From the NCBI RefSeq assembly GCF_041886205.1, contig NZ_CP169029.1: a stretch of 64,000 nt of DNA; one strand, 5' to 3'. The stretch comes from Escherichia coli (lineage in GTDB: Bacteria; Pseudomonadota; Gammaproteobacteria; Enterobacterales; Enterobacteriaceae). The translations under genes were made by a program, and so were the position numbers. Positions 61,310-61,603 of the stretch are shown here, piece by piece (the stretch's first letter is position 1; the number at the start of each line of letters is the position of its first letter). A model generated the notes under the pieces. It was not told where the DNA came from, searched no databases, and saw nothing but the letters and a program-made list of their open reading frames with translations.

Positions 61310-61536
61310 AAAAAAAACCAGCAGGTATAATCTGCTGGCGGGTGATTTTACACCAATACTCAGTCACACATGATGCAGGCAAGTCAACTTTCAGAATTGC
61401 GGTCATCCCACTGCATCAGTTCTTCAAGCATGGTTAATCGTTGTGGGACGCTTAACCAACGCAACCAGCACAACTTCGCTGTCGCGGTAAAATAGTGCTG
61501 ATAAAACTGACGCATGGGGCACCTCCTTGCTTCATC
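61310..61536 (-). ncRNA. sgrS: SgrS small RNA (glucose-phosphate stress, dual-function sRNA)
   Basis: Contains the sgrT ORF, the ptsG-pairing sequence (minus strand tgtgtgactgagtattggtg, plus 61351-61370) and a 3' terminator (stem ccagcag/ctgctgg plus U-run); the 5' end is placed from recalled reference spacing, not read from the sequence. Confidence 0.85.
61384..61515 (-). CDS. sgrT: SgrT, 43-aa peptide encoded within SgrS (inhibitor of glucose uptake by PtsG)
   Basis: Translation MRQFYQHYFTATAKLCWLRWLSVPQRLTMLEELMQWDDRNSES; the longer upstream ORF extension is not used. Confidence 0.85.
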   Translation of the reverse strand: MRQFYQHYFTATAKLCWLRWLSVPQRLTMLEELMQWDDRNSES

Positions 61537-61603
61537 GTTAGGAATTATTGACTTAATATAGGGAAAATAAAATTGCTGTCTTTTGCGCAGGAGTTCCCCT
61601 TTT

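Follow-up and report, generated by a model that had tools for sequence, protein, structure and literature searches.

The window, the whole 64,000-nt stretch of E. coli DNA analysed here, carries what by its sequence is almost certainly the canonical E. coli glucose-phosphate stress locus, sgrR / sgrS-sgrT / setA, with all of its elements intact. The SgrS/SgrT locus here is well studied, ordinary and already annotated in thousands of genomes, and our sequence, family-model and literature checks turned up no evidence against the identification. Over 401 nt it departs from K-12 at three bases: C in place of T at position -51 of sgrS, A in place of G at SgrS nt 13 (A13 versus G13), and A in place of G at SgrS nt 116. 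By comparison of alleles, A13, which lies in the sgrT ribosome-binding site, is the ancestral and majority state while the G13 of K-12 is a derived minority, and the window allele probably makes more SgrT peptide than the K-12 allele does.

The SgrS RNA and its regulatory elements

SgrS is a 227-nt small RNA on the minus strand (61310..61536; +1 at 61536, 3’ end at 61310), divergent from sgrR and located between sgrR and leuD (59450..60055). The covariance-model scan that had been proposed as a check matched Rfam RF00534 end to end (model positions 1-232; 232.9 bits, E = 1.6e-65, gathering threshold 37 bits); together with the Pfam match of the peptide described below, this bears out the earlier note, which had read the locus as SgrS with an embedded SgrT on the minus strand. 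The RNA has a predicted fold of -78.8 kcal/mol (z = -4.9), and 0 of 200 dinucleotide shuffles fold as well. Strain E2865 and others, in which RefSeq annotates sgrR / sgrT / setA, match the 401 nt around SgrS at 100% identity, and of 5,426 complete E. coli genomes 5,399 have the SgrS locus. The K-12 locus (RF00534; EcoCyc sgrST-setA operon) has the same gene order, a 67-bp spacer, a 227-nt SgrS and sgrT at nt 22-153, with SgrR and SetA each 99% identical to those of the window. The two are identical over the whole stretch that runs from SgrS nt 117 up to the setA start codon and takes in seed, small hairpin, terminator and 27-nt junction, so that K-12 experiments carry over directly.

From those experiments, and from the sequence here, the locus would work as follows. 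Sugar-phosphate stress would lead SgrR to activate the sgrS promoter in the 67-bp spacer. The single-stranded 3’ seed of SgrS, with Hfq, would pair over the ribosome-binding site of ptsG mRNA, leading to a translation block and decay, and the RNA would also act on targets besides ptsG. The 5’ half would be translated into the 43-aa SgrT, which would inhibit the PtsG transporter. Finally, SgrS molecules ending at the terminator would carry the 3’ poly-U needed for Hfq, and read-through transcripts would constitute the setA mRNA.

Homologues were collected by scanning genome contigs (298 Gb) with a 14-nt seed pattern. At least six real SgrS loci were recovered among the 120 loci listed; a 14-mer is too short for 298 Gb, and most matches are chance hits in unrelated phyla. 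The real loci come from three Citrobacter, E. albertii, Superficieibacter electus and Siccibacter colletis, and match RF00534 over its full length at 83-213 bits.

The ptsG-pairing region occupies SgrS nt 168-187 (61350..61369, minus strand). Pairing was computed against the K-12 ptsG leader, ptsG itself lying outside the window. The seed-restricted duplex of nt 168-187 with ptsG -29..-5 has a 4-8-5 pattern, G176 and G178 being present, and corresponds to the published interrupted 5-8-4 pairing (PMC2760817). The 8-bp core CUGAGUAU (nt 174-181, 61363..61356) meets its partner AUACUCAG at ptsG -22..-15, adjoining the ptsG Shine-Dalgarno. A ptsG-pairing sequence had been placed in the 3’ part of the RNA by the earlier note, and the published pattern is indeed reproduced there with the K-12 leader; the seed is intact, with none of the mutations disrupting ptsG complementarity that the note had said would speak against its reading. 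Of 5,424 E. coli genomes, 5,412 have a ptsG leader with 99% identity or more, so a mismatch between seed and ptsG in this strain is very unlikely. Duplex energies were less informative. The duplex of the whole of SgrS with the ptsG leader (-64 kcal/mol) is an inflated all-along pairing and was discarded as physically meaningless, and the shuffle control of the seed-restricted duplex was marginal (-30.5 versus -29.8 for the best shuffle). It is thus the identity to the pairing mapped by experiment in K-12, and not the energy, that carries the argument. Across the nine enterobacterial homologues aligned, the pairing region does not vary. Neither do the 10 nt that precede the search pattern (TCATGTGTGA), and their invariance is independent of how the loci were selected.

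Downstream of the seed, a fold of the 3’ 71 nt gave a small hairpin (nt 183-196; 61341..61354, minus strand), the role of which is described in PMC4021124. It is followed by a Rho-independent terminator (61310..61339, minus strand; stem nt 198-220), with an 8-bp stem at 61339..61317 and a U8 tract of which the first U closes the stem and seven are unpaired, the tail running to 61310. The earlier note had called an intrinsic terminator here, and both the terminator scan and the folds recovered the 8-bp stem and U tail; in homologues the stem is invariant (9/9) and the loop varies. The elements of the Hfq-binding module, hairpin and poly-U terminator, are thus present in the sequence and identical to those of K-12. 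RNAalifold on the nine homologues found covariation in only 6 of 47 pairs, which is unsurprising in so small and closely related a sample; a weak RNAalifold helix running through the seed was not credited.

SgrR and the divergent spacer

The activator gene sgrR (61604..63262, plus strand) encodes a 552-aa protein that matches the NF010149 equivalog at 1125.6 bits over residues 1-550 (cut-off 476), with the DNA-binding domain SgrR_N (PF12793, 147.7 bits) and a C-terminal SBP_bac_5 domain (PF00496, 76.8 bits). Its start codon at 61604 and the sgrS +1 at 61536 leave a spacer of 67 bp (61537..61603), exactly the length given in the earlier note. From alignments and the literature this is the divergent control region; it is reported to contain the sgrS promoter and to be conserved. 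In the cross-genus alignment a conserved block at 61544..61578 corresponds to sgrS -8..-42 and includes a -10 element, AATAAT, at 61549..61544 (-13..-8) preceded by a poor -35, in keeping with an activator-dependent promoter. A second conserved block (61588..61606) holds the sgrR Shine-Dalgarno and start codon. Between the two, a variable patch (61579..61587) holds the C/T difference at 61587 (-51), which is probably neutral, the position of the SgrR operator being judged from conservation. A minus-strand site proposed by the promoter scan (AAGACA-16-TATATT, 61582..61555) was rejected as the sgrS promoter; it ends 19 nt before the mapped +1.

A further input to this region has been described in K-12, where genomic SELEX gave an RpoN+NtrC peak in the sgrR-sgrS spacer and nitrogen starvation induces sgrS, setA and sgrR in a manner dependent on rpoN and ntrC (PMC8743547). 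By-eye inspection of the spacer for a sigma-54 motif found nothing convincing.

SgrR has an extra C-terminal Glu here, giving 552 aa, as it does in LHM10-1 and O157:H7, the two further genomes inspected that carry an insertion downstream of sgrR; it has 551 aa in K-12 and in E2865 (from a 1,656-nt CDS). The shift in length together with the insertion places the insertion site against the sgrR stop codon (63260-63262). Where K-12 has a TPP riboswitch and thiB immediately after sgrR and O157:H7 has the effector gene espY2, the window has, at 63263-64000, a degraded minus-strand gene for a pentapeptide-repeat protein (ORF 63726..63974). The gene contains a 15-nt (5-codon) tandem repeat at 63874-63949, in 5.1 copies; in the nearest genomes the stretch is different in length by a single 15-nt unit (738 versus 723 nt) and the gene is annotated as broken. 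This stretch is partly matched in 1,039 of 5,426 genomes, with at least 80% of it found in 207.

setA and terminator read-through

On the other side of SgrS, setA (60104..61282, minus strand; ATG at 61282) encodes a 392-aa sugar efflux transporter, identified by TIGR00899, MFS_1 and the literature. It scores 600.1 bits against TIGR00899 over residues 17-391 (cut-off 522.3) and 449.7 against the SetB equivalog, which is below the cut-off of 693; the protein is therefore not SetB. RefSeq annotates the gene as setA, and leuD, leuC and the leu leader lie beyond it. The junction that separates the end of SgrS from the setA start codon (61283..61309, minus strand) is identical to that of K-12 and contains a possible setA Shine-Dalgarno. 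Its length is 27 nt, the figure also given as the sgrS-setA gap in PMC9765468; the earlier note was right to place setA immediately beyond the terminator but its 28 bp is off by one, because the coordinate difference was taken as the gap.

That note had also read the arrangement as consistent with read-through into setA. In K-12, cotranscription of setA has been demonstrated by Northern blot and lacZ fusion (PMC4509938, PMC9765468), and published work covers read-through of the terminator, SgrR dependence and the loss of Hfq binding by the extended transcripts (PMC4509938, PMC9765468, PMC4021124). As terminator and junction are identical here, cotranscription of setA in this strain by read-through of the SgrS terminator is supported by analogy. 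The alternative, that setA is driven by a promoter of its own, for example inside sgrS, would fit a terminator whose perfect 8-bp stem and eight U could be efficient, and the terminator deletion that raised setA-lacZ merely 1.6-1.8-fold (PMC9765468). Against this, terminator and setA ATG are just 27 nt apart, the promoter scan gave no minus-strand site downstream of the sgrS promoter region, and the tight junction (27-45 nt) is kept in Citrobacter, Superficieibacter and Siccibacter. Furthermore, the read-through transcripts were detected by both sgrS and setA probes and setA induction is SgrR-dependent (PMC4509938, PMC9765468). We consider a separate promoter very improbable and retain read-through as the preferred reading.

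The order sgrR <> sgrS/sgrT > setA > leuD is found in Citrobacter, Superficieibacter and Siccibacter, with SgrS-setA gaps of 27, 27, 27, 36 and 45 nt; the shared order and tight gap argue that the sgrS-setA operon design is ancestral. Within E. coli, setA is found in 3,240 of 5,426 genomes, the same set that carries the K-12-like SgrS 3’ half. The remaining ~2,158 genomes match at 90-95% with the match stopping at the terminator, so that setA is absent in ~40% of E. coli. The setA allele of the window is unusually rare. Strain ET201 alone has it at 100% identity; 9 genomes reach 99% or more, and 3,230 fall at 95-99% (98.6-98.9% among the matches listed). The SgrS region, unlike the adjacent setA, is identical in many genomes, and a rare setA next to a common SgrS region suggests a local recombination boundary near the SgrS-setA junction.

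Two of the related loci lie near matches to sok (RF01794). In Siccibacter colletis the match falls between leuD and setA (6760-6911 of locus L120), and in Superficieibacter electus it lies ~11 kb downstream of setA, at the contig end (14536-14688 of locus L024). At least in Siccibacter, a hok/sok-type module has thus been inserted beside the sgrS-setA operon.

SgrT and the reading frame around it

Within SgrS, sgrT comprises 43 codons and a stop (SgrS nt 22-153; 61384..61515, minus strand), from an ATG at 61515 (nt 22) to a stop ending at 61384; the peptide is MRQFYQHYFTATAKLCWLRWLSVPQRLTMLEELMQWDDRNSES. Translation, Pfam and the RefSeq sgrT annotation agree on this product. It matches PF15894 at 50.5 bits (cut-off 27), and no model matched in an NCBIfam search with SgrT. 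In a comparison of peptides the core MRQF...YFTAT...PQRL.MLEELMQW was kept across genera, which points to selection on the protein. Production of SgrT and inhibition of PtsG are known for K-12 and Salmonella, and by analogy would be expected here.

The same frame is open further upstream, giving a 99-aa ORF (61384..61683, minus strand) with a TTG start at 61683, the last 43 residues of which are SgrT. Might this ORF be the real product, with the 43-aa peptide merely its C-terminal domain? The frame does stay open for 99 codons from the TTG, here as in K-12, O157 and E. albertii. The TTG, however, falls within the oppositely oriented sgrR coding region, 147 nt ahead of the mapped 5’ end of sgrS, and the ORF runs across the sgrS promoter. 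The SgrT family match is limited to residues 59-93, and three Citrobacter homologues carry, in frame, a TGA at SgrS nt 3-5 that shuts the frame 7-9 codons before the ATG; that the N-terminal extension stays open in Escherichia is due solely to the different register of the ATG. RefSeq, too, annotates the 43-aa product. The chance that the longer ORF is the product is negligible, and the family match, the Citrobacter TGA and the RefSeq annotation uphold the earlier view that it is an artefact and that the true product is the C-terminal 43 aa.

One of the base differences from K-12 changes the peptide. SgrS nt 116 (61421, minus strand) is A here and G in K-12, giving E32 versus G32 in SgrT, at a residue that falls inside the conserved LxELMQW motif. 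Allele frequencies, here and below, are exact matches of short queries among the 5,399 E. coli genomes that bear the locus. With a 46-mer around nt 116, the window type (E32) was found in 1,174 genomes and the K-12 type (G32) in 2,782. By outgroup comparison E32 is ancestral, yet it is a minority within E. coli, and G32 is unlinked to G13. An inference from nine sequences, that G32 is an oddity of the K-12 lineage linked to G13, is refuted by these counts.

The sgrT ribosome-binding site

The Shine-Dalgarno of sgrT in the window is GGAGG (SgrS nt 11-15; 61522..61526, minus strand), with A13 at 61524. K-12 has GGGGG, and in the alignment its G13 completes the inhibitory GGGGGUGCCCC hairpin. Mutagenesis indicates that this hairpin represses sgrT translation in K-12, and that its 5’ arm cannot be mutated without damage to the Shine-Dalgarno (PMC2760806). 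The window counterpart of the hairpin is GGAGGUGCCCC: in the 5’ sequence GGAGGTGCCCC, A13 breaks the K-12 stem and at the same time gives a consensus GGAGG six nt before the ATG. The local hairpin is predicted at -0.4 kcal/mol for the window and -6.0 kcal/mol for K-12, and a fragment of the 5’ 30 nt folds at -6.7 versus -12.4 kcal/mol. In full-length folds the two alleles are nearly equal: the mean unpaired probability of the ribosome-binding site is 0.33 with A13 and 0.31 with G13, and in both the AUG is predicted to be buried in a long-range helix. Any effect of A13 would therefore depend on local or co-transcriptional folding.

To place the two alleles within the species, a 61-nt stretch (SgrS -18..+43) was matched exactly: the window type occurs in 3,348 genomes, that of K-12 in 1,421 and that of O157, with its ATT start, in 312. 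An A at nt 13 is also found in E. albertii, in O157:H7 and in the Rfam consensus, from which it follows that G13 is the derived state. A limited literature search found no published paper with a within-species comparison of A13 and G13.

Taken with the K-12 mutagenesis, an allele without the inhibitory hairpin and with a consensus Shine-Dalgarno predicts a higher output of SgrT. Whether SgrS instead acts in this strain by base pairing alone, with sgrT silent or barely translated, has to be weighed against this. Such a state is assumed for O157:H7, with its ATT start, and is largely true for K-12, with its occluded ribosome-binding site; the native K-12 allele yields very little SgrT (PMC2760806), the ATT-start allele recurs in 312 E. 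coli genomes, and in the predicted full-length folds the AUG of the window allele itself is mostly paired (unpaired probability 0.07). In the window, however, the ATG is intact, the consensus GGAGG stands six nt 5’ of it and the K-12 hairpin is lacking, and conservation of the peptide core across genera argues for selection on the protein. Pairing without appreciable SgrT thus seems unlikely here, and we favor an RNA that both pairs and is translated. If the hairpin is what limits SgrT in K-12, most E. coli, this strain included, would make substantially more of the peptide than K-12, a generalization that we hold tentatively and rate at slightly less than an even chance.

Comparison with relatives

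The SgrS of O157:H7 and E. albertii, with the same sgrR-sgrS spacer, agrees with that of the window over its first 131 nt, A13 and E32 included, and in the seed and terminator stem. It differs at ~nt 132-161, from the LMQW-coding part to the seed, and in the small hairpin and the terminator loop; neither O157:H7 nor E. albertii has setA, and leuD comes straight after SgrS. The sgrT start codon of O157:H7 is ATT where the window has ATG, a mutation taken by the literature to abolish SgrT production. RefSeq nevertheless annotates a 43-codon sgrT CDS in O157:H7 TW14359 (4136-4267 of locus L003) despite its ATT first codon.

As in the window, Salmonella and Citrobacter have a dual-function SgrS with sgrT, an invariant seed, a terminator and a divergent sgrR (Salmonella from papers). 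The Citrobacter loci have setA downstream and, like the window allele, are without the K-12 hairpin (PMC2760806 and alignment); their SgrS is 243-249 nt long and their SgrT has 40 aa, 65-70% identical to that of the window.

Other features of the window

The window is part of the E. coli chromosome; over 24 kb, with secA and the dcw cluster, strains 6EVA and LHM10-1 match it at 100% identity. At 33591-33680 (minus strand) there is a full-length match, at 104.9 bits, to RF02797, ‘PssrA, plasmid-encoded Shigella sRNA A’. It covers the ftsA-ftsZ spacer together with 21 nt at the end of ftsA and 9 nt at the start of ftsZ, a chromosomal location that the family name does not fit. Further Rfam matches at 27278-27471, 27875-27944, 15890-16003 and 55181-55330 lie at ordinary chromosomal positions; they are two naRNA4 copies (yacG-mutT spacer, REP-type repeats), STnc40 (secA/mutT junction), tp2 (pdhR-aceE spacer) and the leu leader (upstream of leuA).

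Implications

The read-through design that joins sgrS to setA is ancestral; it is absent in the ~40% of E. coli in which leuD directly follows SgrS. For SgrT, the translation-inhibiting hairpin that accounts for the low output of K-12 belongs to an allele found in roughly one in four sequenced E. coli and does not characterize the species. If the window allele does yield more peptide, the peptide arm of the glucose-phosphate stress response would have been underestimated from work on K-12, and conclusions drawn there on the relative weight of base pairing and peptide may not transfer to strains like this one.
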